From positions 24,120,001 through 24,184,000 of the forward strand of contig NC_086097.1 in the NCBI RefSeq assembly GCF_963921235.1: a DNA stretch of 64,000 bases, read 5' to 3'. The translations under genes were made by a program, and so were the position numbers. Within the stretch, counting starts at the first letter, position 1. Each line of letters begins with the position of its first letter. Source of the stretch: Mobula hypostoma. Taxonomy: Eukaryota. The notes beneath the pieces were generated by a model. The model ran no database searches. It saw only the letters and a program-made list of their open reading frames with translations, and was not told the DNA's origin. Shown in pieces: positions 1-57,655 of this stretch.

Positions 1-1085
1 ACAGGAAAGATATTGGCATGGATAGCGAAATGGCTGACAGGCAGTAAGGAGTGTGTGGGAATAAAAGGGGTCTTTCCTGGCTGACTGCCAGTGACTAGTG
101 GTGTTCCTCAGGGGGTTAGTATTGGGCGCTCTACTTTTCACATGTTTTGTCAATTATTTAGATAATGGAATTGATGTTTTTATGGCAAAGTTTGCGGATG
201 ATAGAAGATAGGTGGAGGGGTAGGTAGTGCTGAGGAAGCAATGCGATTGCAGCAGGACTTAGACAAATTGGAAGGATGGGCAAAAAGTGGCAGATGGAAT
301 ACAGTATTGGGAAATATATTATCTAAATGGGGAGAAGGTTCAACCATCAGAGGTGCAGATGGACTTAGGAGTCCTCGTGCAAAACTCCCAGAAAGTTAAT
401 TTACAGGTTGAGTCTGTGATAAGGAAGGCAAATGCGATGTTGTCATTTATTTCGAGGGGAATAGAATATAACAGCAAAGAGAAAATGCTGAGCCTTTATA
501 AGACACTAGTCAGGCCGCACTTGGAGTATTGTCAACAGTTTTGGGCCCCATATCTCAGAAAGGATGTGCTGTCATTGGAGAGAGTCCAGAGCAGGTTCAC
601 GAGGATGATCCTGGGAATGAAGAGGTGAACATATGAGGGGCGTTTGGCAACTTTGGGCCTGTACTGACTGGAATTTAGAAGAATGTTGTGGGAGCCGGGA
701 TCTCATTGAAACCTACCGAATGTTGAAAGGACTAGATAAGGTGGATGTGGAGAGGATGTTTCCTATGGTGGGGGCATCCAGAACTAGAGCGTACAACCTC
801 AAAATTGAGGGGCAAACTTTTAGAACAGAGGTAAGGAGGACTTTCTTTTCCTTTTAGCCAGAGAGTAGTGAATGCGTGGAATGTTCTGCCACAGACTGCG
901 ATGGAGGCCAAGCCGTGGGTATATTTAACGCAGAAGTTGATCGCTTCCTGATCGGTCAGGGCATCAAAAGATATGGCTAGGAGGCAGGTGTATGGGTCTG
1001 AGTGGGATCCGGGATCAGCCATGATGAAATAGCGGAGCAAACTCGATGGGATGAAGGGCCTAATTCTGCTCTTATGGTATTACGG
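1..1085 (+). mobile_element. CR1 LINE, ORF2 RT C-terminal half plus 3' UTR, decayed (5' part outside window)
   Basis: GVPQG (~100) and KFADD (~188) motifs in DNA; ORF 287..628 has DLGVLV...LYKTLVRPHLEYCQQFWAP...LERVQSRFTRMI, typical of CR1 ORF2; frameshifts and stops present. Confidence 0.92.
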
Positions 1086-1124
1086 TCTGAAAAGCTGGTG
1101 GAACTCAAAAATGTCGGCAGCACC

Positions 1125-1575
1125 TATGCTGAGGACGAGGCCCTTCATCAGAACCTGTTGAAAGAGCTCGGCCCAAATCGACTGCTTGTTCTTCTACATT
1201 GATGCTGCCTGATCTGCTGAGTTCCTCCAGCGTTTTGTGTATGTTGCTCTGGGATTCCAGTAGCTGCTGAATCTCCTGTGTGTACAATGACAGGAGACAT
1301 AAGTGAACACAGTCATAATGATCAGCTGGCCGAGCAGCATCCGTGGAGGGGAAAGAACTGTCAATGTTTCGGGTGGACACCTTGCACAATGTCAGTGGGG
1401 ATTTATCGGCGTTATTGCTACCGTTACTATGCCGACTGAATTCTCTCAGTACATGATATCGACCTGAGACATCGAATGTCCATTTCCACCCGCAGATGCT
1501 GCCAGGCTCGCTGAGTTCCTCCAATTGTTTTCTTTTTTGCTCCGGATTTCTGGATCTGCATTCCCTTGTGCCTTT
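1125..1575. mobile_element. Decayed Penelope-derived terminal-repeat fragments in both orientations
   Basis: cccttcatcag and gatgctgcctgatctgctgagttcctccagc blocks match the repeat that follows the GIY-YIG remnant at 51130-51762. Confidence 0.7.
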
Positions 1576-1666
1576 GCAACGTTAACTCCGCTTCCCACTT
1601 CTAAAAATCTTGCTTGACCTGCTGACAGCGTTTTGCGTGTACTTTTACGGCATGATCGTTCTGTGA

Positions 1667-1667
<1 letters not shown>

Positions 1668-1740
<73 letters not shown>
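1668..1740. repeat. Compound (TG)n(AG)n microsatellite
   Basis: Seen directly; produces the VCVC/ERER run in ORF 1633..2067. Confidence 0.97.
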
Positions 1741-1743
<3 letters not shown>

Positions 1744-1769
1744 GGGTTTTTGCGGGACAGACGGCATTT

Positions 1770-1920
1770 GTATCAGCAGCTGGAAGGGAGATGGGAGAAA
1801 CAAGAATATCTGGGGTGGGTGGGGTCTTTGATTATGCCGGCAACTTTACTGAAGCAGAGTCTGTGGAGGGTAACTGGTTTCCGTGACAGGTTGAGCTGTG
1901 TCCACAACGCTTGGCTGTTT
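1770..1920 (-). mobile_element. Rex1/Babar LINE 3' ORF fragment
   Basis: ORF 1773..1967 contains KVAGIIKDPTHP...LPS, the Rex1 C-terminal motif. Confidence 0.75.
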
Positions 1921-2484
1921 CTTACTGTCACTTGCAGAGCAGTGACCATCCAATTAGTATGCTGCACCTATGTAAAAAAAAATGTACTTCTGATTGTGAT
2001 TATTACAGTTCTAATATCGGATACTCCGGAGCTGCAGTGCGATCACCCGAGTACGATGTTCTCCTAAGGGGTTGTCTATTGGTGGGTCCTCAGGTGGCTG
2101 TGGCTTTCAGGAGCCACATATTCTGGTGCACTGTTGGCAGGAGTAAATGGTGGCTGTGGTAATTGGTTGGTGTTAGCCGTCCATATGTCCTGAGCTATCC
2201 ATCGCAATTGGTATTGTTTGATCTTGGTGGATATGCTGCTTAAGTTAATGGTTAATGAACATCAACATGATGAACCGTTGGTCGTAAAAAACTTCGAATC
2301 AAAACTTCGCAAGACCATAGTGTGCTAGAGATGGGTGTTAAAATGACTAATTGATGACTAAAACGGGGCTACCTCGTCTCCTTTTAAATTCGTCAACGGC
2401 GCTGGCGTCTCAACAGCAGAGACTGAGCCAGGTACGATCCAAATTATTGACGGTATTCGTCGGCATCGTAACTATTACTAGATA

Positions 2485-2685
2485 AACACACACACACACA
2501 CACACTATGCTGGAGGAACGCAGCAGGTCAGGCAGTATCTCTGGAAAAGAAGAAAGAATCGACGTTTCGGGCCGAGACCCTTCATCAGGACTGGAGAGGA
2601 CGGGAGAAGAAGCCAGAAGGTGGGGCGGGGGAAGTAGTACAAGTTGGAAGGTGAAGTCAGGTGAGGGAGGAAGGTAGGTGGTTGG
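2485..2685 (-). mobile_element. Penelope-derived terminal repeat carrying the intact hammerhead motif
   Basis: Same block order (pyrimidine-rich tract, hammerhead, gatgctgcctgacctgctg tail) as the GIY-YIG-linked copies. Confidence 0.82.
2557..2592 (-). ncRNA. Minimal type I hammerhead ribozyme motif, core intact
   Basis: Minus strand reads aguc-CUGAUGA-a-gggu(cucg)gccc-GAAA-cg-UC-gauu: both conserved boxes, 4-bp stem II, palindromic ACGU at stem III, GUC triplet, 4-bp stem I with one GU pair. Activity untested. Confidence 0.78.
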
Positions 2686-3234
2686 GAGTACTATGACTAA
2701 CACGATTCAGCGGGCTTTGTAACCACATTATTAATATTGGCAAAAATATTCAGAAAAGCAGGAGGAACTCAATAGGCCGGGCCTCATCAGTGGAGGAAAA
2801 GGATAGACGTAGATGTCTGGTGCTGGGTGGTCGGGTCCAAGCTGTATCCACGCGGACTGAGCCCACCGGGCCGATCCCCGATCAGCGCGGTGCCTGCGAG
2901 CAACCATAAACCATAAAGTGCTGAGCTCCCGCTGTCTGGACCAGACCTCACCAAGATGAAAGCATTACCAGCACAAATAGTACTCCGGTTAAACTGAAGT
3001 CAGACTTACCCAGTTGTATAGTGATTGACTAATATAAGGTTATAGTTAAAATATTAATTAGTTAATGTTAGTAACGTAGACCCCAAACCGGTTAAATCGA
3101 ATCACTAGTAGTTACAGAGCAGACTGAATACTGTCAGTAATGCGGTTCAAATGTTAACTGGATGGTGTTAGCAACAGTTACCGTATGAATTGTTCGGTGT
3201 CAGTAATGCTGTCACAATACCGTCTGTAATATCA

Positions 3235-3750
3235 GAACATAAAACATTACAACACAGCACAGACCCATGATGTTGTGCCAACCTTTTCACCTACTCTACG
3301 ATCAATCTAACCCTTCCCTCCTACACAACCATTTTTCCAGTTTTCTCTCATCCATTTGCTAAGAGTTTATTAAATGCCCCTAATGTATCAGCCTCTACCA
3401 CTATCCCTGGCAGGGCGCTCCACGCACCCACGCTGGAAATAATATACTTCCGACTTCCCCCCTATACTTTCCTCCAATCTTAAAATTACGCTCCCTGATA
3501 TCAGCAATTTCTTCTCTGGGGAAAATATACCGCTGGCTGTCCACTGGATCTATGCTTCTTATCATCTATCAAGTCACCTCTCACCTTCCTTTTCTTCAAC
3601 AAGAAAACTCCCTAACTCGCTCAACCTGTCCTCTTCCCCAATCCGGGCAGCAAAGCGTAAATCTCCTCTGCACCCTCTCCACACCATTCCTATAACGAGG
3701 TGACCAGGACTGAACACAATTCCAAATGCGGTCTAAAACAGGTTTTAGTA
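3235..3750 (-). mobile_element. CR1 LINE 3' fragment
   Basis: Reverse strand gives RPHLE..CSVLVT; 3' UTR resembles other CR1 copies in the window. Confidence 0.8.
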
Positions 3751-3941
3751 ACAGTGTCAATTATAAGGTGTCTGTAATACAGGCACAAAGCTAATTGACT
3801 GGTGTCAATAATGAACTGTAAAAGTTGGCATATAATTATCCTGCCGATTGAATAGCTGGTACTCCTTCCCCGCCCTATTGAATATAAGCAGGAACACAAT
3901 TGTAGTCCTAATTGGTTAGTGCCTGTAATGTAGTCACGGTA

Positions 3942-4330
3942 ACACAAGAGATTCTGCAGATGCTGCAAATCCAGAGTAACACACACACACACCGCAGGGG
4001 GAACCCAGCAGATCAGGCATCGTCTACGGAAACGAGTAAAACAGTCGGTATTTCGGACCGAGACCCTTCGTTCATCAGGACTGGAAAGGAAGTGGGGAAA
4101 ACGCAGATTAAGAAGTTGGGTGGGAGGAGGGGAAAGGAGTAAATTCTAGAAGGTGAGGGGGTGGGTGGGCTTGCGGGGGAGGGATGAAGTTAGAAGCTGG
4201 GAGGTGACAGATGGAAAAGGTAAAGCGCGAAGAAGGAACCTTAAAGGAGAGGGCAGCGGACTATGGGAGAGCAGGGAAAAAGGGGCAGCGGAAAGAGGTG
4301 ATAGGCAGCTGAGGAGAGAATGGGGAATGG
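3942..4330 (-). mobile_element. Penelope-derived 3' region with degenerate hammerhead (4042-4083)
   Basis: cagtcggtatttcggaccgagacccttcgttcatcaggactg, with a 4-nt insertion and altered cleavage triplet. Confidence 0.78.
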
Positions 4331-4664
4331 ATCCTGAATACCGTTACCAGTGCATTTCATATACAAACTCAATGCTGTCAGTGACATCACTGAGCAAATT
4401 CTCGCAGAAATATAGTTAAAACGCCCAGAGATTCGATAACACGGTTCCAGTGACTCCTGAATACTATTCGGAATAGAATTAAAATGCAAAGTGAACGCGG
4501 TACCGAGTGAAGCGCGCCAGCATTACGGTTAAAATCCCACATTACAGTTAAAAAGCGAAATGAATTACCGATAGACAGAGCAGCCTTTAATACATATTGA
4601 ATAGTGGAAGTAGAGATACAACGATGCTTGAATATCAGTAGTAGTGTTACCACTCGAGACAAGT

Positions 4665-5005
4665 ACGATTTGAGGGGCTATTCCCTTATGGAGAGTGTCA
4701 GTGAGTGGGGAGGCTGATGTACAGGCAGCCGCCATACAGTACACGACACATCGAGGCCAGGAGTCCGTGACACGGAATGCGATATGTCCCGGGACCCTCC
4801 ACTGCCATTGTGATGTGTCATCACCTTCCACCAACTCCACGGCTGAAGTCTTGGTTGGATCGCTTCCTGTCCGGGTCCTCCCACTTGACCTTACCACTAT
4901 GGGTCACCGTCCGAGGAGCTAAGCTCCAGACGGCATCGCGTTGGGGATCTCAGGTACGCGCAAGCCCCTCCACCACGACAAGGTGACGATCCTCGGAGGA
5001 GGCTT
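4665..5005 (-). mobile_element. Probable RTE-clade LINE 5' leader fragment
   Basis: Minus strand caccttgtcgtggtggaggggcttgcg...gatccc...ggtaaggtcaag resembles RTE-type 5' UTRs as I recall them; GC-rich insert within the AT-rich 34-bp array; related piece at 17815-17975. Confidence 0.55.
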
Positions 5006-8859: not shown

Positions 8860-9390
8860 TGCAGGGCTAATTGTACCTCCCTGATAAAGAAGGCACGGCA
8901 GACCCTCCACTTCCTAAGAAGAATGAGTCAGGCAAGGCTACCCCACCCCCCCCAAATCTTAATTGCGTTCTACAGGAGCACCATTAAGAACCTCCTGACA
9001 AGCTGCATCTCTATCTGGTATGGGAGCAGTCAAGCATCAGACCAGAAGTCCCTACAAGAGACTGTGAGAAAGAATGAGAGGATCACAGGGGTCTCCCTAC
9101 TATCTATCAGGGACATTTATCAGGAGCACTGCATATGCAGAGGCCTTAGTACTATTAAGGATCCCACCCATCCATCCAGCATCCTCTTTGACTTGCTACC
9201 ATCAGGATGAGAAAGAGTTTCTTTCCCCAGGCTGTTAGGCTTCTGAACTCCCTGCTGCGAAGTGTCACTGGTTAAACTGTTCTGTACCTTACCATATTTA
9301 ATATTATGTGTCGTTCCTATATATCATATATGGTTACATACGTTATATACATGTATAAGTTAATTGACAATAAACTTGACTTGACTTGAG
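8860..9390 (+). mobile_element. Rex1/Babar 3' fragment
   Basis: ORF 8923..9210 FYRSTI..LLTSCISIWYGS...IKDPTHPS..LF.LLPSG; aataaacttgacttgacttga tail. Confidence 0.85.
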
Positions 9391-9636
9391 CAACACACAC
9401 AAAATGCTGGGGGACCTCAGCAGGCCAAGGCAGCATCTATGGAAAAGAGTATAGTCAACATCTTGGACCAAGACCCTTCATCAGGACTGGAGAAATCAAG
9501 TCCTGATGAAGGGTCTCGGTGTGAAATGTTGACTGTACTCTTTTCCACAGATGCTGCCTACCTTGTTGAGTTCCTCCAGCATTTCGCGTGTATTGTTTGG
9601 ATTTCCAGCATCTGCAGATTTTTTCACTTGTGGTTT
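9391..9636. mobile_element. Fold-back pair of Penelope terminal repeats with two opposed hammerhead motifs
   Basis: Arm 9391-9488 is an imperfect reverse complement of arm 9499-9595 (cccttcatcaggact / agtcctgatgaaggg), with a 10-nt spacer. Confidence 0.85.
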
Positions 9637-12890: not shown

Positions 12891-12952
12891 ATACCGCTAC
12901 AATTGTTGGCAATATTATAGCAATGTGAATTGAATGATATCGTTAAATGAAT

Positions 12953-13152
12953 TACACATACAAAAGGTTGGAGGAACTCAGCAGGCCAGGTAGCATCTAC
13001 AGAAAAGGATAAGCAATCGGCTTTTCAGGCCAAGACTCTTCATCAGGACTGGGACCCATATCCCTTTCCATAGATGCTGCCTGACCTGCTGAGTTCTTCC
13101 AGCATTTTGTATATGTTACTCTGGATGTCTAGCATCTGCATAACCTGTTGTA
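12953..13152. mobile_element. Fold-back Penelope terminal-repeat pair, right hammerhead deleted
   Basis: ggaggaactcagcaggccagg..gcatct versus agatgctgcctgacctgctgagttcttcc; cttcatcaggactg near 13038-13051. Confidence 0.75.
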
Positions 13153-34265: not shown

Positions 34266-36081
34266 CAGTTGGTTCAAGCTAATTGGGCCATTGGTTAATT
34301 GGGGCAGCCGTGTATTTGAGACATTCCTTAAAGATTAAAATATAGTTGAGAAAGTAGCCAGGATTTCCTTCATTTACTTGAGTCACTATGCGGCTTAATT
34401 AGGACAGGAGTCTGTTGCCAGACATTCTCTAAGCCAGCGGTCCCCAACCACCGGGCTGCGGACTGGTACCGGGCCACGAGGAAATGATATGATTTGGCGA
34501 TATGAGTCAGCTGCACCATTCCTCATTCCCTGTCACGCCCACTGTTGAGCTTGAACGCACGCGAGGTCATTACTCACGCGTCGTCCATGTCAGCGCGGGA
34601 AGGAGATCAACTCCTCGAGCTTGCAGATGATGGTGGGCTGAAAAGTATGTTTGACGTAACATCTCTGCCGGCATTCCAGATCAAAGTCAAGGCTGAATAT
34701 CCTGAGATAGCCACGAAAGCACTGAAAATGTTGCTTCCATTTCCAACATTTTCCTGCAATGAATGCAAGGAAAACTATATTGCGGAATAGACTGGACATA
34801 AGGAACCCCTTTCGAGTATCGCTGTCTCCCGTCACCCCTCGATAGGACCGTGTTGTTGCAGGAAAACAAGCCCAGGGCTCCCTCTGATTCAGCGATATTG
34901 GTGTGTTGCAATGATTTTACATGTTCATACAGGGAAAATATGTGTGTGTTTAATATCCAAACATTACTTAAAATGTTATGATGCTACTGACTTACTTACA
35001 TAACCATATAACAATTACAGCACGGAAACAGGCCATCTCGGCCTTTCTAGTCCGTGCCGAACGCTACTCTCACCTAGTCCCACCGACCTGCACTCAGCCC
35101 ATAACCCTCCATTCCTTTCCTGTCCATATAGCTGTCCAATTTTTCTTTAAATGATAATATCAAACCTACTGGAAGTTTGTTCAACACTTACCTAGAGCTC
35201 CCCTGATAATTGACTTATCACTACATTCATGCAAAAAAAATATGCGCTGTGTGTTTAATATTAAATTCGTTAGATAAACCCTTTAAGAAATGAAATTGAG
35301 TGTATTAGCCACTTATCTCCTATATTCTAGTCGTGATTAACACTCCCATTCCCCCCCCCCAACAGAATCGCCAAAAAGGATTTGCAGGAAAAAAGCAGGT
35401 CACAACGCACATGCGCACTGGTGCCCGCGCAAGGCTTCATGGTCATTGTAGGCTTTCTCGGGGTAAACACAACGTATTTGACTGCTACTCTTGTCCGTTG
35501 GCAACCCTACGCCCCCCCCCACCCCCCGGGGTCAGCCGGTCCGCAAGAATATTGTCAATATTAAACCGGTCCGCAGTGCAAAAAAGGTTGGGGACCCCTG
35601 TTCTAAGCATTGTCAATGGCGTGCACTTGTTTGGCCATTAGACACTCTGGTGGGAACAGGTTTTAAATAGCATCAGCTGCAAATACTTGTGTTTTGTTAT
35701 CCATGTGGGCCGACGGATGCTGATTCAAACCGCAGTGGTTTTTTGATAGTTTTTTTAAATGTGACTTCATGCGCTAGGTGTCTGTACTGATTTTGTTAAC
35801 TTACAGTCAAACAAAAGAACTCAACAAAGTGCAAAGGATAAATTCCTCCATCGATAACTATTAGGAACTAATATAGTTTTATAGTATTATATTGGTATTG
35901 ATAGCATTGTAATTTGTTCTGTTTTTCATTTAAATACATAAATTGTTACTCAGTTAAATAGTAGTTTATCTTTTTTATATCTTCTAATTATTTCCATGGA
36001 ACTTGGACTACTTAGTGCAGCTGCATAATTGAGGCAAAATGTACTGGTCCCGATGTGTCCCAAATAAACAAGAATCCACTG
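34266..36081. mobile_element. Tigger/pogo-like MITE hosting the Charlie insertion
   Basis: Imperfect TIRs cagttggttcaagctaattggg / cccaaataaacaagaatccactg followed by TA on the right; subterminal taattggg repeats. Confidence 0.55.
34435..35600 (+). mobile_element. Non-autonomous hAT-Charlie/Buster element with transposase C-terminal remnant and internal CR1 tail
   Basis: TIRs cagcggtccccaacc / ggttggggacccctg; TSD ctctaagc / ttctaagc; LP.F.IKVK.EYPEIATKALK.LLPFPT...KQAQGS (hAT dimerisation domain). Confidence 0.92.
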
Positions 36082-43370: not shown

Positions 43371-44586
43371 GTATTATTACAATGCAATTATGCAACTATT
43401 TGCAACGTGAAATATGTCGGTAACGTTGATAGTGCGCAGGCAAGGAAGAGATGAACAGCAAAATTCTCTTGGCACACATTTGCTTACGGGTGGTCGGTGG
43501 TTTGAAGTGGTGCTCGATCACAGTCATTGAGAAAGCAGCCTTTTATTGGATTTCCCCTGTGCTGAAAAAAAAAATCCTCTTAAATATCACTCCACTGTTA
43601 TTATTTTTGTTTGGAAGTGAAGCACTAAACCCCGCTGTTGTCCAGGCTTGGCACGGCCCACAGCAGAGCTAAAAACATGGCTCGATCAGAGCACTGAGAC
43701 ACAAACTTGGCACATGTTCCCTCTTCCCAGCATCTTAGGAGTTGAACAGTATCACAGCAGTGTGTGGGAAGCCAATGCGAGCATTTCCAAAGCCCTTTTA
43801 ATGATCTGGACATCTGCTGTACAAAATGGGGAACTGGGAACAGAGTCAAAAACTGCTTAGAATTTGCATTTGGGTCAGTTGATGGTCTTCAGTGGTGACT
43901 CTAGGAAGAATGGCACCATAGCTTGGCTTCCTGAACGATTTCTGGTCTCTACCAGAAAGTCTGCCAAGGCCTTAGAGTGAATACAGGCCAAAGGTTTTAC
44001 CGGCATGATTCCAGGGATGAGGAATTTCTTTGCCTGTTGAGAAAGGAAAAGCTCATACTCTATGCCTTGGTAGAGAAGTCTCAAGAGAAGATTTGATAGA
44101 GACATGAAAATATTTATTTTTGTTTGTTTAGATACAGCACAGTAACATGGATACAGTGTATGGTCGTGTACTTCCATGGAAGGAATAAAGACATAGATTA
44201 TTTTCTAAATGTGAGGCAATTTCAGAAGTCCGAGGTGCAAAAGGACTTGGGAGTCCTTATGCAGGATTCCCTAAAGATTAACTTGCAGGTTGAGTCAGTA
44301 GTAAGGAAGGCAATTGCCTTCCATTTTGAGAGGACTTGGATATAAAAGCAAGGATATAATGCTGAGATTTTATAAGGCATAGATCAGGCCACATTTAAGC
44401 AGCTTTGAGCCCCATAGTTAATAAATGATGCACTGTCGTTGGAGAAGGTTCAGAGGAAGTTCACAAGAATGATTCTGGGAACTGAAGGGTTACCGTATGA
44501 GCAGCGTTTGATGGCTCTGGGCCTGTACACACTGGAGTTTAGAAGAATGAGGGGGTTCCCATTGAAACCTACTGAATATTGAAAAG

Positions 44587-44840
44587 AGGAACTTAGCAAT
44601 TCAGGCAGCAACTATGGAGGGAAGTAAGCAGATAAGCAGTCAAATTTTCAGGCTGAGACACTTCATCAAGACTGCATGATGAAGTGCAGTCCTGATGAAA
44701 AGTTGCAGTCCTGAGGAAGGGTCTCAGTCCAAAACATCGACTGCTTATTCCTCCCCACAGATGCAGCCTAATCTGTTGAGTTCTTCCAGCACTTGGTGTG
44801 TGTTGCTCAAAATTTCTAGCCTCTGCAGAATCTTTTGTGT
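44587..44840. mobile_element. Fold-back Penelope terminal-repeat pair with reiterated hammerhead 5' halves
   Basis: cttcatcaagactgc ... gcagtcctgatga ... gcagtcctgaggaagggtctcagtccaaaacatcgactgc. Confidence 0.8.
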
Positions 44841-45063: not shown

Positions 45064-46265
45064 TAGGGGTCCCCAACCTTTTTTGCACTGCGGACCGGTT
45101 TAATATTGACAATATTCTTGCAGACCGGCTGACGGTGGGGGGGGGGGGGCGCGGGGGGAGGAGGTAGGGTTGCCAACGGACAAGAGTAGCAGTCAAATAC
45201 GTTGGGTTCATCCCGAGAAAGACTACAATGACCATGAAGCCTTGCGCGGGCACCAGTGTGTATACGTGTTGTACGTGCCGATTTTTCCTGCAAATCGTTT
45301 TTGGCGATTCTGTTCGGTGGGGGAGGGGGTGGTGGTGTTGATCACGACCGGAATATAGATGATAAGTGGCTAATATACTCAATTTCATTTCTGAAAGGGT
45401 TTATCTAACGAATTTAATATTAAACACAGCGCATATTTTGCTCGCATGAATATAGTGATAAGTCAATTATCAGGGGAGGACAGTGGAGCTTGAAGTAAGT
45501 GTGGAACGAACTTCCAGTAGAAGTGGTAGAGGCAGATTCGATATTATCATTTAAAGAAAAATTGGATAGGTATATGGACAGGAAAGGAATGGAGGGTTAT
45601 GGGCCGAGTGCAGGTCGGTGGGACTAGGTGAGAGTAGCGTTCAGCATGGACTAGAAGGGCAGAGATGGCCTGTTTCTGTGCTGTAATTGTTATATGGTTA
45701 TATAAGTCAATAGCATCATAACATTTCAAGTAACGTTTAGATATTAAACACACAGCATATATTTTCCCCGTATGAACATATAAAATCATTGCACCACACC
45801 AATATCGCTGAATCAGTGGGAGCCCTGGGCTTGTTTCCCTGCAACAAGACGGTGCCATCGAGGGATGATGGGAGACAGCGATACTCAAACAGGGTTCCTT
45901 ATGTCCCGTTTATTCCGCAATTTAGTTTTCCTTGCATTCGTTGCAGAGATATGTTGGAAATGGAAGCAACGTTTTCAGTGCTTTTGTGGCTATCTCACGA
46001 TATTTATCCTTGACCTTGATCCAGAATGCCGGCAGAGATGTTATGTCAAACATACTTTTCAGCCCACCGTCACTTGCAAGCTCGGGGAGCTGATTTTCTT
46101 CCCGCGCTGACATGGATGATGCGCGGGTAATGACCTCGCGTGCATTCAAGCTCAACAGTGGGTGTGACAGGGAATGAGGAAAGATGCAGCTGACTCATAT
46201 CGCCAAATCATATTGTTTCCTCGTGGCCCAGTACCGGTCCATGGCCCGGTGGTTGGGGACCGCTG
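45064..46265 (-). mobile_element. Second copy of the composite hAT-Charlie element, inverted
   Basis: TIRs taggggtccccaacc / ggttggggaccgctg; perfect 8-bp TSD TTCTAGAT (45056-45063 and 46266-46273); ORF 45922..46155 FWIKVK..Y.EIATKALKTLLPFPTYLC. Confidence 0.94.
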
Positions 46266-53469: not shown

Positions 53470-53970
53470 AAAAGATTATGCAGATGCTGAAAATCCAGAG
53501 CAATGCACACATATACAGGAGGAACTCAGCAGGCCAGGCAGCATCTATGGAGAAAGGTCTCACCTCAAAGCTGTCCATGTTTTGGGGTGGGGCACTTCAT
53601 CAGGACTGGAAAGGAAGTGAGCAGAAGCCAGAATAAGAAGTTGGGGGGAGGTGGGTGGTGGGAGGAGAAGTACAAACTGGCAGGTGATAGGTAAAACCAA
53701 GTGAGGGGGAAAGTTGATGGGTGGGAGAAATGAGGGTGAAGTATGAAGCTGGGAAATGATAGGTGGGAAAGGTAAAGGAATGAAGGAGAAGGAATCTGAT
53801 AGGAGAGGAGAGTGGACCATGGGGTAAAAGGAAAGGAAGAGGCAAACCAGAGGGAGGTGATGGGCAAGTAGAGAAGAGGTGAGAGGGGAGCCAGAATGGA
53901 GAATGGGAAAAGAGAGAAGGGTGAGAGTGGAGAAATCGATGTTCATGCCATCAGGTTGGACTTCCCAGAT
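53470..53970 (-). mobile_element. Penelope-like 3' end
   Basis: QPDGMNIDFS in ORF 53560..54105, pyrimidine-rich UTR, SSPDE hammerhead region at ~53575-53610. Confidence 0.82.
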
Positions 53971-54454
53971 GGAATTATCCTTCTCACATCCTTCTGAGGT
54001 CAGAGATGATATTTGCACCTTTAGCTGGGATGCTGGAAGTGTGAATGTGTAATGTTTCACTCCATTTGCGACCTGATTTGATTTCCTTGGTTTATTTGTT
54101 CGCATTGTGTTTCACAGGCTGTCACCGACAAGGCCAGTAGTTATTGCTAATTGTCCCAAATTGGCCTTGAAGCACATGACTTTCTGTGCCATTACATAAA
54201 GCAGGTGAGATGAGAATTTCAGTTGGTCAGGAGTAATATATCAGTTGAAACAGATAATAACATTGGATTGACTTCCTAAAAGATATGAATGAACTAAATG
54301 AGTTCTTTATATAATCCAATATTTCCACAGACATTATTGACACTGATTATAATTGTAGATTACTTTTAATAAATCTTTTCAAACTCCCCTATTCCCATGG
54401 TGGGATTTGAACGTACATTTTCAGATCATTTGTCCAGGCTTCTGGACTATTCCA

Positions 54455-56708: not shown

Positions 56709-57465
56709 CAGACATCCCATACTGCAAAAACTCATTTCAGGGAGGTAGCACCATCAATTTGCGGGAGACTCCCGGAACTTCCGGGAGAGGTGGGATGTCT
56801 GCAACAGAGTAGCTCCTTAGCAGCTAGCTAGCTAGTTTAAATAACGTTAGCTATGCTAAGGAATGAATGACACCTGTTAAACTCACCTCAACATGTCTTT
56901 TCCAGTCTTAACCCACCACGGGCAATAGAAAAGTCACTGTTGCAAACAGTGCAACGAGCAACACTGTCATTATTTTTGACCCCTATTAGGCAGGGGTACA
57001 CTTTAGTGTAGTCTGGGGTGACGTACGTTTTGTATTTTCTTTTTTTGGAGCACTCTGCCACTCTGACTTTTTTTGGAACTCTCTCACTCTTGCTCTTGCT
57101 CTCGCTCTCTCGCTGGTGGTTGCTCTCTCTCGCGGTTGCTTTCTGGCGCGCGCTCTCTTTCTTGTGGCCACTCTGACTCGCGCTCGCTCGCTCTCGCTCT
57201 TGCTTTCTCGCTCTTGCTCTCGCTCGCTCTCTCTCTCGCGATTGCTTTCTCACTCTCGCTCTCTCACGTGCACGCTCTCACGCTCTCGTAGTCGCTCTCA
57301 CTCGCGCTTGTTTTCTTGTTCTTGCGCTCGCTCTCTTGCTCTCTCTCGCGCGCTCTCTCTCAAAAAAATTGATTTCCGTGATATTGTATATAATTTGCTG
57401 GCATCAGGGAGCCACTATTAATATGCGGGAGACTCCCGGAACTTCCGGGAGAGGTGAGATGTCTG
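56709..57465 (-). mobile_element. Non-autonomous hAT-like DNA transposon retaining an N-terminal zinc-finger remnant
   Basis: TIRs cagacatccca / tgagatgtctg; internal direct copy of the right-end ~45 bp at ~56757-56800; minus strand KKRKYKT...YPC...ARCTVCNSDFSIA.GG..(fs)..KRHVE; inserted into a Rex1-type 3' UTR. Confidence 0.75.
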
Positions 57466-57516
57466 TTAGGATCTTGCACTGCGCTTTCACTGTAGCTTTT
57501 ACACTTTATTCTGTAC

Positions 57517-57655
57517 AAGTCCTGAAGAAGTGTCTCAGCTTGAAACGTTGGCTGTTTGTTCATTTCCATGGATGCTGCCTGACTGGTTGAGTTCCTCCAA
57601 CACTTTGCGTGTGTGCTGCTTTGGATTTCCAGCATCTGAAAGATCTCTTGTGTTT
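57517..57655 (+). mobile_element. Penelope terminal repeat with hammerhead boxes retained (CUGAAGA...GAAACGUU) but weak stem II
   Basis: agtcctgaagaagtgtctcagcttgaaacgttggct. Confidence 0.72.

Follow-up and report, generated by a model that had tools for sequence, protein, structure and literature searches.

Minimal hammerhead ribozymes have been described from Penelope-like elements (PLEs), including the fish elements Xena, Poseidon and Neptune. In the account of Cervera and De la Pena (2014, PMC4209133) they are type I motifs without a real helix III, with a palindromic 15.2-16.2, an unpaired base between A9 and G10.1, a G10.1-C11.1 pair and a stem I of 4-5 bp; they are placed in the pLTR, and most copies are scattered, solo, truncated motifs. 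The metazoan representatives are reported not to cut as monomers and to cut weakly as dimers (PMC4209133; review PMC6765202). For the Poseidon element of Anolis carolinensis (PAc), the hammerhead was described as cutting only with the element's protein, which depends on a region in the ORF's first 172 nt, and as unnecessary for insertion in vitro; even this active element yielded no reads that end at the cut site (PMC11167929). The role of PLE hammerhead cleavage in transposition has been called unclear (PMC8557442). Related motifs are known from non-LTR retrozymes, which have been reported from one chondrichthyan genome (bioRxiv 10.64898/2026.07.22.740005), and from intronic hammerheads that were domesticated in amniotes (PMC6155905).

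Here we describe a hammerhead motif of this kind at positions 2556-2593, on the minus strand, of a 64-kb stretch of ray DNA, G000:C1:24,120,001-24,184,000 (hereafter the window). It has every trait of the published minimal motifs listed above, including the position in a pLTR, and belongs to a family in which most copies are likewise solo and truncated; its stem II is 4 bp long, in contrast to 7-8 bp in the Schistosoma families (PMC4209133). As in PAc, tandem elements of the ray family carry the hammerhead in a pLTR just upstream of or at the start of the ORF, and the 3' end of insertions is constant and lies beyond the ribozyme. Unlike PAc, in which the ORF starts within stem II, the ray element has an open frame that begins ~85 nt after C3, a Neptune-like Cys linker and a cleavage that is predicted only (PMC11167929). 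With the Neptune-clade EN+ PLEs (Craig et al. 2021, PMC8557442) the family shares a single RT-EN ORF, a DKG motif, a C-terminal GIY-YIG, partial tandems, adjacent inverted truncated copies and a pLTR hammerhead, and its C-x4-C-x2-C linker fits the Neptune form CX2-5CxxC. Two supplementary files of the 2014 study hold no shark, skate or Callorhinchus entry (PMC4209133), and we found no literature report of such a hammerhead family in a shark or ray, although the supplements of the bioRxiv preprint may list it.

Two classifications were considered and set aside. The fragment resembles non-LTR retrozymes in being non-coding and in its PLE-pLTR-derived type I hammerhead, but retrozymes consist of tandemly repeated units that each bear a hammerhead, with at least two in succession, whereas 2556-2593 lies in a solo stub (bioRxiv 10.64898/2026.07.22.740005). 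Nor does it fit the domesticated intronic hammerheads, which are read with the host transcript: here the host exon is on the plus strand and the motif on the minus strand.

The motif and the truncated copy that carries it

The motif was delimited from the sequence, a descriptor scan with shuffled controls and alignment to the subfamily consensus. Read on the minus strand, 2557-2592 begins with AGUC, followed by C3-A9 (CUGAUGA) at 2588-2582 and by an unpaired A at 2581, between A9 and 10.1. Stem II (GGGU/GCCC, 2580-2577 with 2572-2569) consists of three G-C pairs and one U-G pair, is closed by the loop CUCG and includes the G10.1-C11.1 pair (G 2580 with C 2569). The GAAA of G12-A15.1 occupies 2568-2565 and is followed by C15.2 (2564), G16.2 (2563), U16.1 (2562) and C17 (2561), so that the palindrome ACGU (15.1-16.1, at 2565-2562) stands in for helix III. 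The core is complete (CUGANGA, GAAA, U16.1 and H17 are all present), and from C17 at 2561 the predicted scissile bond is 2561/2560. On both the core and the cut position the letters confirm the initial annotation. Its further statement that stems I and II can form stands for the 4-bp stem II and fails in part for stem I. The latter, open-ended as in type I motifs (2593-2589 with 2560-2556), has five Watson-Crick pairs in the subfamily consensus and four pairs, one of them a wobble, in this copy; two substitutions in its 3' strand leave a G-U wobble at 2558 and a C-C mismatch at 2556.

A model search, proposed earlier as a check on the motif, gave a divided answer. A minimal-hammerhead descriptor found 2556-2593 as its sole match in the 64-kb window, with a match of any kind in 3/200 dinucleotide shuffles and a match with the 2-nt palindrome and UC in none of the 200. 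The Rfam scan returned no hammerhead family at E ≤ 1, which is uninformative for a motif that has no helix III.

The motif lies in the 5'-truncated 3' end of a pLTR (2484-2688, minus strand, ~205 bp) that alignment to the consensus assigns to an old, Neptune-like Penelope subfamily. This stub is without any ORF remnant, and its flanks show ~14% non-CpG divergence (18/126 sites, against the old-subfamily consensus); the 39 best relatives in the genome match it at 77-89% identity over part of the length. A (TG)10 run (2486-2505, minus strand), longer than in the consensus, lies at the TG-rich 3' end of the element. A possible target-site duplication is weak, with a left copy at 2471-2480 that agrees in 9 of 10 letters with a right copy at 2690-2699 (both on the plus strand).

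In the window, nhmmer identified 22 pLTR fragments; 21 of them span the motif and just one has the whole core, so the earlier statement that this is the only canonical core here is correct. The ACGU palindrome was absent from all ten other minus-strand fragments of the window and was found in two further fragments on the opposite strand. No tandem partner exists for 2556-2593, the next same-strand fragments being more than 1 kb away and broken. The nearest of these, upstream on the minus strand (3943-4143), keeps three of its four CpGs, but it has a 4-nt insertion and has lost both the palindrome and U16.1, and is for these reasons not a compatible dimer partner. Over the 164-kb region pLTR fragments show no strand bias (25 minus, 21 plus). 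We also observed inverted, back-to-back pairs of short pLTR stubs (9385-9621, 44563-44839 and 12949-13151 in the window, and L072:5038-5279) that abut through their 5' ends at the hammerhead or close to it; genome-wide, there are many pairs of a minus and a plus copy at a spacing of 40-130 bp.

The parent element and its lineages

Copies of the pLTR share a common 3' end and have variable 5' cut points, some of them beside an inverted copy. Longer copies extend upstream into the GIY-YIG C-terminus, ~300 nt before the hammerhead, and relatives from the old subfamily likewise run into the EN C-terminus. One such old-subfamily copy lies in the window itself (53471-53900, upper limit approximate, minus strand), where the pLTR match and the frame 53563-54111 join the last GIY-YIG codons to the pLTR and connect the PLE ORF with the old subfamily. 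A stop-to-stop frame of 1,043 codons was present in four of ten stretches that had been chosen after a protein search for long open frames; in two of them (L152 and L154) the hammerhead occurs in both pLTRs, 3.5 kb apart, around the RT+EN frame. Pfam detected RVT_1 (582-697, E 6e-5) and GIY-YIG (946-1002, E 0.002) in the L152 frame, both below the curated cut-offs, and a DKG motif and the C-x4-C-x2-C linker between RT and EN were read by eye in the translations. The Penelope origin proposed in the initial annotation is thereby upheld: in relatives of the fragment, this 3' end is continuous with a GIY-YIG C-terminus and with an RT+EN frame of 1,043 codons that lies between two hammerhead-bearing pLTRs. 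The parent fits a Neptune-like EN+ PLE; this is a clade call from motifs, because a Zn-finger-like linker also occurs in Nematis (PMC8557442). Several elements in L151-L154 contain the 1,043-codon open frame, and in L154 an inverted second element lies directly upstream. The preservation of this frame in several elements suggests that the Penelope family was recently active.

We counted copies in a 414-kb sample, made up of the window together with 10-kb stretches, ten of them close by and 25 scattered, with two non-random stretches (L081 and L082) excluded. Here nhmmer detected 95 pLTR fragments, 22 of them inside the window; the 73 outside it extrapolate to ~725,000 in the 3.48-Gb genome. 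The whole core is present in one of the 62 old fragments of the sample, the copy at 2556-2593. The exact 30-mer of the motif occurs 1,266 times in the genome, and core-intact copies number at least 50,427 (7,580 + 39,897 + 2,950, from three non-overlapping 31-nt patterns), compared with ~4,000 in coelacanth and ~9,000 in Xenopus (PMC4209133); many of them sit in young elements with an undamaged stem I. Consequently, the earlier description of 2556-2593 as the best candidate for an active ribozyme is true only within the window: the copy is solo, its stem I is weakened and the core is intact in at least 50,427 other copies.

The most amplified young lineage, which includes the intact-ORF elements, has G10.1-U11.1 (39,897 identical 31-mers, e.g. 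L152:4096 and 7609) and differs in this from the published G10.1-C11.1 (PMC4209133). The other decay product of the same C11.1/G12 CpG, G12 to A, accounts for 1,421 copies, a 28-fold asymmetry. To judge by these counts, a master spread the U11.1 wobble form and apparently did not spread the catalytically dead one, a pattern that is consistent with selection for catalysis but may reflect a single event in one master. At the N7/G8 CpG of the dominant lineage the asymmetry was only 1.6-fold (2,950 TG vs 1,795 CA, against 39,897 parent copies), and we read it as mostly neutral decay after insertion and not as a sign of selection.

Between the old consensus and L152, which was found by protein search, the motif differs at 3/38 positions and the flanks at 45/128 (p = 9e-4), and all three motif changes are tolerated ones (N7, the distal C-G to U-G, and G10.1-C11.1 to G-U). 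A comparison of the old with the young consensus (2/38 vs 43/127) was set aside because the young copies had been picked by exact hammerhead match. Stems I and II show one-sided changes and no two-sided covariation between the lineages compared, and the 110 descriptor matches, from 160 loci most of which had been selected for their similarity to the family, include no divergent hammerhead family. Among old copies, core positions are identical in 553/656 cases (84%) and non-core positions in 901/1106 (81%; p = 0.14). Preferential conservation across the family, on which the initial annotation had made its case depend, is therefore found in one place and missing in another: master lineages keep the motif, while old copies have no excess of core identity and the lineages compared show no two-sided covariation. 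On this evidence, selection on the motif is visible only between master lineages.

CpG decay and the neurexin setting

The motif contains four CpGs (in loop II and at C11.1-G12, C15.2-G16.2 and C17-G1.1). The copy at 2556-2593 retains all four; the 61 other old copies retain 45/244. Of the four, one overlaps G12, one the palindrome and one the cut site, so that deamination would disable most old copies. The TG and CA products are about equally frequent in old copies, for example 25 vs 20 at C11.1-G12. These counts indicate that old copies decay neutrally after insertion.

A plus-strand frame located 2.4 kb before the window, where it closes at a GT donor, lies inside a CpG island (L071:7339-7561; G000:C1:24117339-24117561) and matches neurexin-1-beta (3biw_E, E 3e-7), which identifies it as the first coding exon of beta-neurexin. 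Among the neurexin paralogues, the host gene is presumably NRXN3. The motif is situated ~5.0 kb downstream of this exon, in an intron and in antisense orientation, in agreement with the earlier claim that it is antisense to the host transcript (exon on plus, motif on minus). As the host pre-mRNA reads the other strand, the motif would not cut host RNA. The window is probably neurexin intron throughout; a weak search with short motifs revealed no next neurexin exon within 104 kb. One unstranded contig, from three repeat-swamped runs presumed to be RNA, covers 2202-2474 at depth 4 and has no bearing on expression or cleavage.

At positions 1001-5000 the CpG o/e is 0.55-0.81 per kb, compared with 0.35 over the whole window; this CpG-rich domain is continuous with the CpG island at the beta-neurexin exon, 1-3 kb before the window, where o/e reaches 0.96. 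Further CpG-rich patches occur at 34593-35638, 45066-46194 and 56891-57587; the first two share similar repeats that, from their translations read by eye, resemble DNA-transposon remnants, and because of this repeated sequence their CpG richness may reflect young repeats and not low methylation.

CpG retention in the old copies rises with the CpG o/e of their flanks, also when the whole neurexin domain is removed (rho 0.39, p = 0.002, n = 60). Eight other old copies in or beside the neurexin domain keep 11/30 CpGs, compared with 39/231 elsewhere, and all have broken cores. Outside its CpGs, the motif at 2556-2593 has changed at a rate compatible with that of the flanks (2/30, binomial p = 0.18), with both changes in stem I. 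We estimate that a whole core survives with a chance of ~0.5% in a CpG-rich setting (from only nine copies) and 0.04% elsewhere. Under neutrality, ~0.0007 per old copy and ~407,000 old copies would leave some 290 core-intact survivors. Among 23 old copies that are perfect over 43 nt, the flanking o/e is ≥ 0.5 in just four, with a median of 0.34 vs a background of 0.24-0.26 (p = 7e-5 to 0.01). Low methylation is thus probably a partial explanation of the survival of the core.

Folding and the alternative readings

The 36-mer folds no better than its shuffles (z -0.25). In its minimum-energy fold the core strands pair together (G5-G8 with C15.2-C17), which hides the core and leaves no hammerhead, and the minimum-energy fold of the family consensus hides it likewise. 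With a C at N7, the state found in young lineages, this inactive rod pairs perfectly; it could be the reason why such ribozymes need protein help. The modelled stem I duplex has -0.4 kcal/mol in the 2556-2593 copy vs -4.7 in the consensus, and the probability of a hammerhead-like monomer fold of this copy is 0.006. In a crude model, the strand-swapped dimer falls from -19.9 kcal/mol in the consensus to -11.3 in this copy, with -11.5 for the young, recently amplified lineage with intact ORFs; given the last value, energy alone is no proof of a dead ribozyme.

Taken together, these data make it very probable that 2556-2593 is an inert, antisense fossil hammerhead in the 3' stub of an old PLE, with a core that chance has preserved, probably with the help of low methylation close to the promoter. 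The parent is the RT and GIY-YIG element described above, with the hammerhead ~300 nt after the stop codon and in both pLTRs. In its tandem transcript a pair of hammerheads would exchange strands by way of ACGU and cleave 3' of GUC, as published for other PLEs, perhaps aided by the element's protein. The copy at 2556-2593 is a ~205-bp 3' stub that has neither ORF nor tandem partner. Inserted copies, as far as the statistics go, decay neutrally and most old ones are disabled by deamination, with CpGs lasting better in CpG-rich surroundings such as those of 2556-2593, where methylation is presumably low. Two points weigh against this fossil reading. The copy is a rare survivor even by the estimate for CpG-rich DNA, and because whole-core survival is so rare, neutrality depends on its having been picked from very many copies. 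Moreover, its RNA might still cut with a partner, as the modelled dimer is about as stable as that of the young lineage.

The latter possibility can be put more strongly, namely that the ribozyme is competent but unselected, and that occasional antisense RNA from the CpG-rich domain is cut at 2561/2560, in trans or with protein, without gain to the host. The whole core and palindrome, the near-identical dimer energies, the tens of thousands of core-intact copies that could serve as partners and the protein-assisted cleavage of the anole element (PMC11167929) would all allow this. We nevertheless consider it unlikely, with stem I close to zero in duplex energy, the monomer hammerhead fold so rare, no compatible cis partner in the window and a stub devoid of the ORF sequence from which the anole protein needs its early region; even the active anole element has yielded no cut-site reads (PMC11167929). 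A host function is harder to credit still. In that case selection would keep the ribozyme for cutting or terminating antisense RNA near the beta-neurexin promoter, as the rare survival of the core with all four CpGs, the CpG-rich domain ~5 kb from the neurexin first exon and the domestication of amniote intronic hammerheads (PMC6155905) might suggest. But the sole two non-CpG changes both harm stem I, a helix that ought to be protected if the fold were under selection; CpGs are also kept by neighbouring copies whose cores are dead; old copies have no excess of core conservation; and the motif, lacking helix III, would depend on a partner.

That the motif is a chance look-alike with no ribozyme ancestry is next to inconceivable. 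The lack of an Rfam match, of a folding signal relative to shuffles and of two-sided covariation among the compared lineages would agree with it; against it stand the shuffles, none of which produced such a motif, the pLTR position expected of PLE hammerheads, the bulge, G10.1-C11.1 pair and palindrome as described for them (PMC4209133), and the far better conservation of the motif than of its flanks between lineages. A more speculative proposal, which we regard as very unlikely, is that host CpG methylation acts as an off-switch for these ribozymes, as G12, the palindrome and the cut site all fall in CpGs, that old copies in unmethylated promoter domains stay armed, and that 2556-2593 cuts beta-neurexin antisense RNA in trans together with element transcripts. 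If true, this would offer vertebrate promoters a route by which to collect working ribozymes from transposons.

On the favoured reading of an inert fossil, the single copy at 2556-2593 matters little, PLE pLTR hammerheads having already been published and numbering tens of thousands in this genome. For the family as a whole, CpG deamination at G12, the palindrome and the cut site would account for the death of nearly all old copies, with the prediction that surviving old hammerheads lean towards CpG-rich DNA. The U11.1 and G12A forms (39,897 and 1,421 copies), in turn, constitute a natural pair of variants with which to ask whether PLE cleavage matters in transposition.
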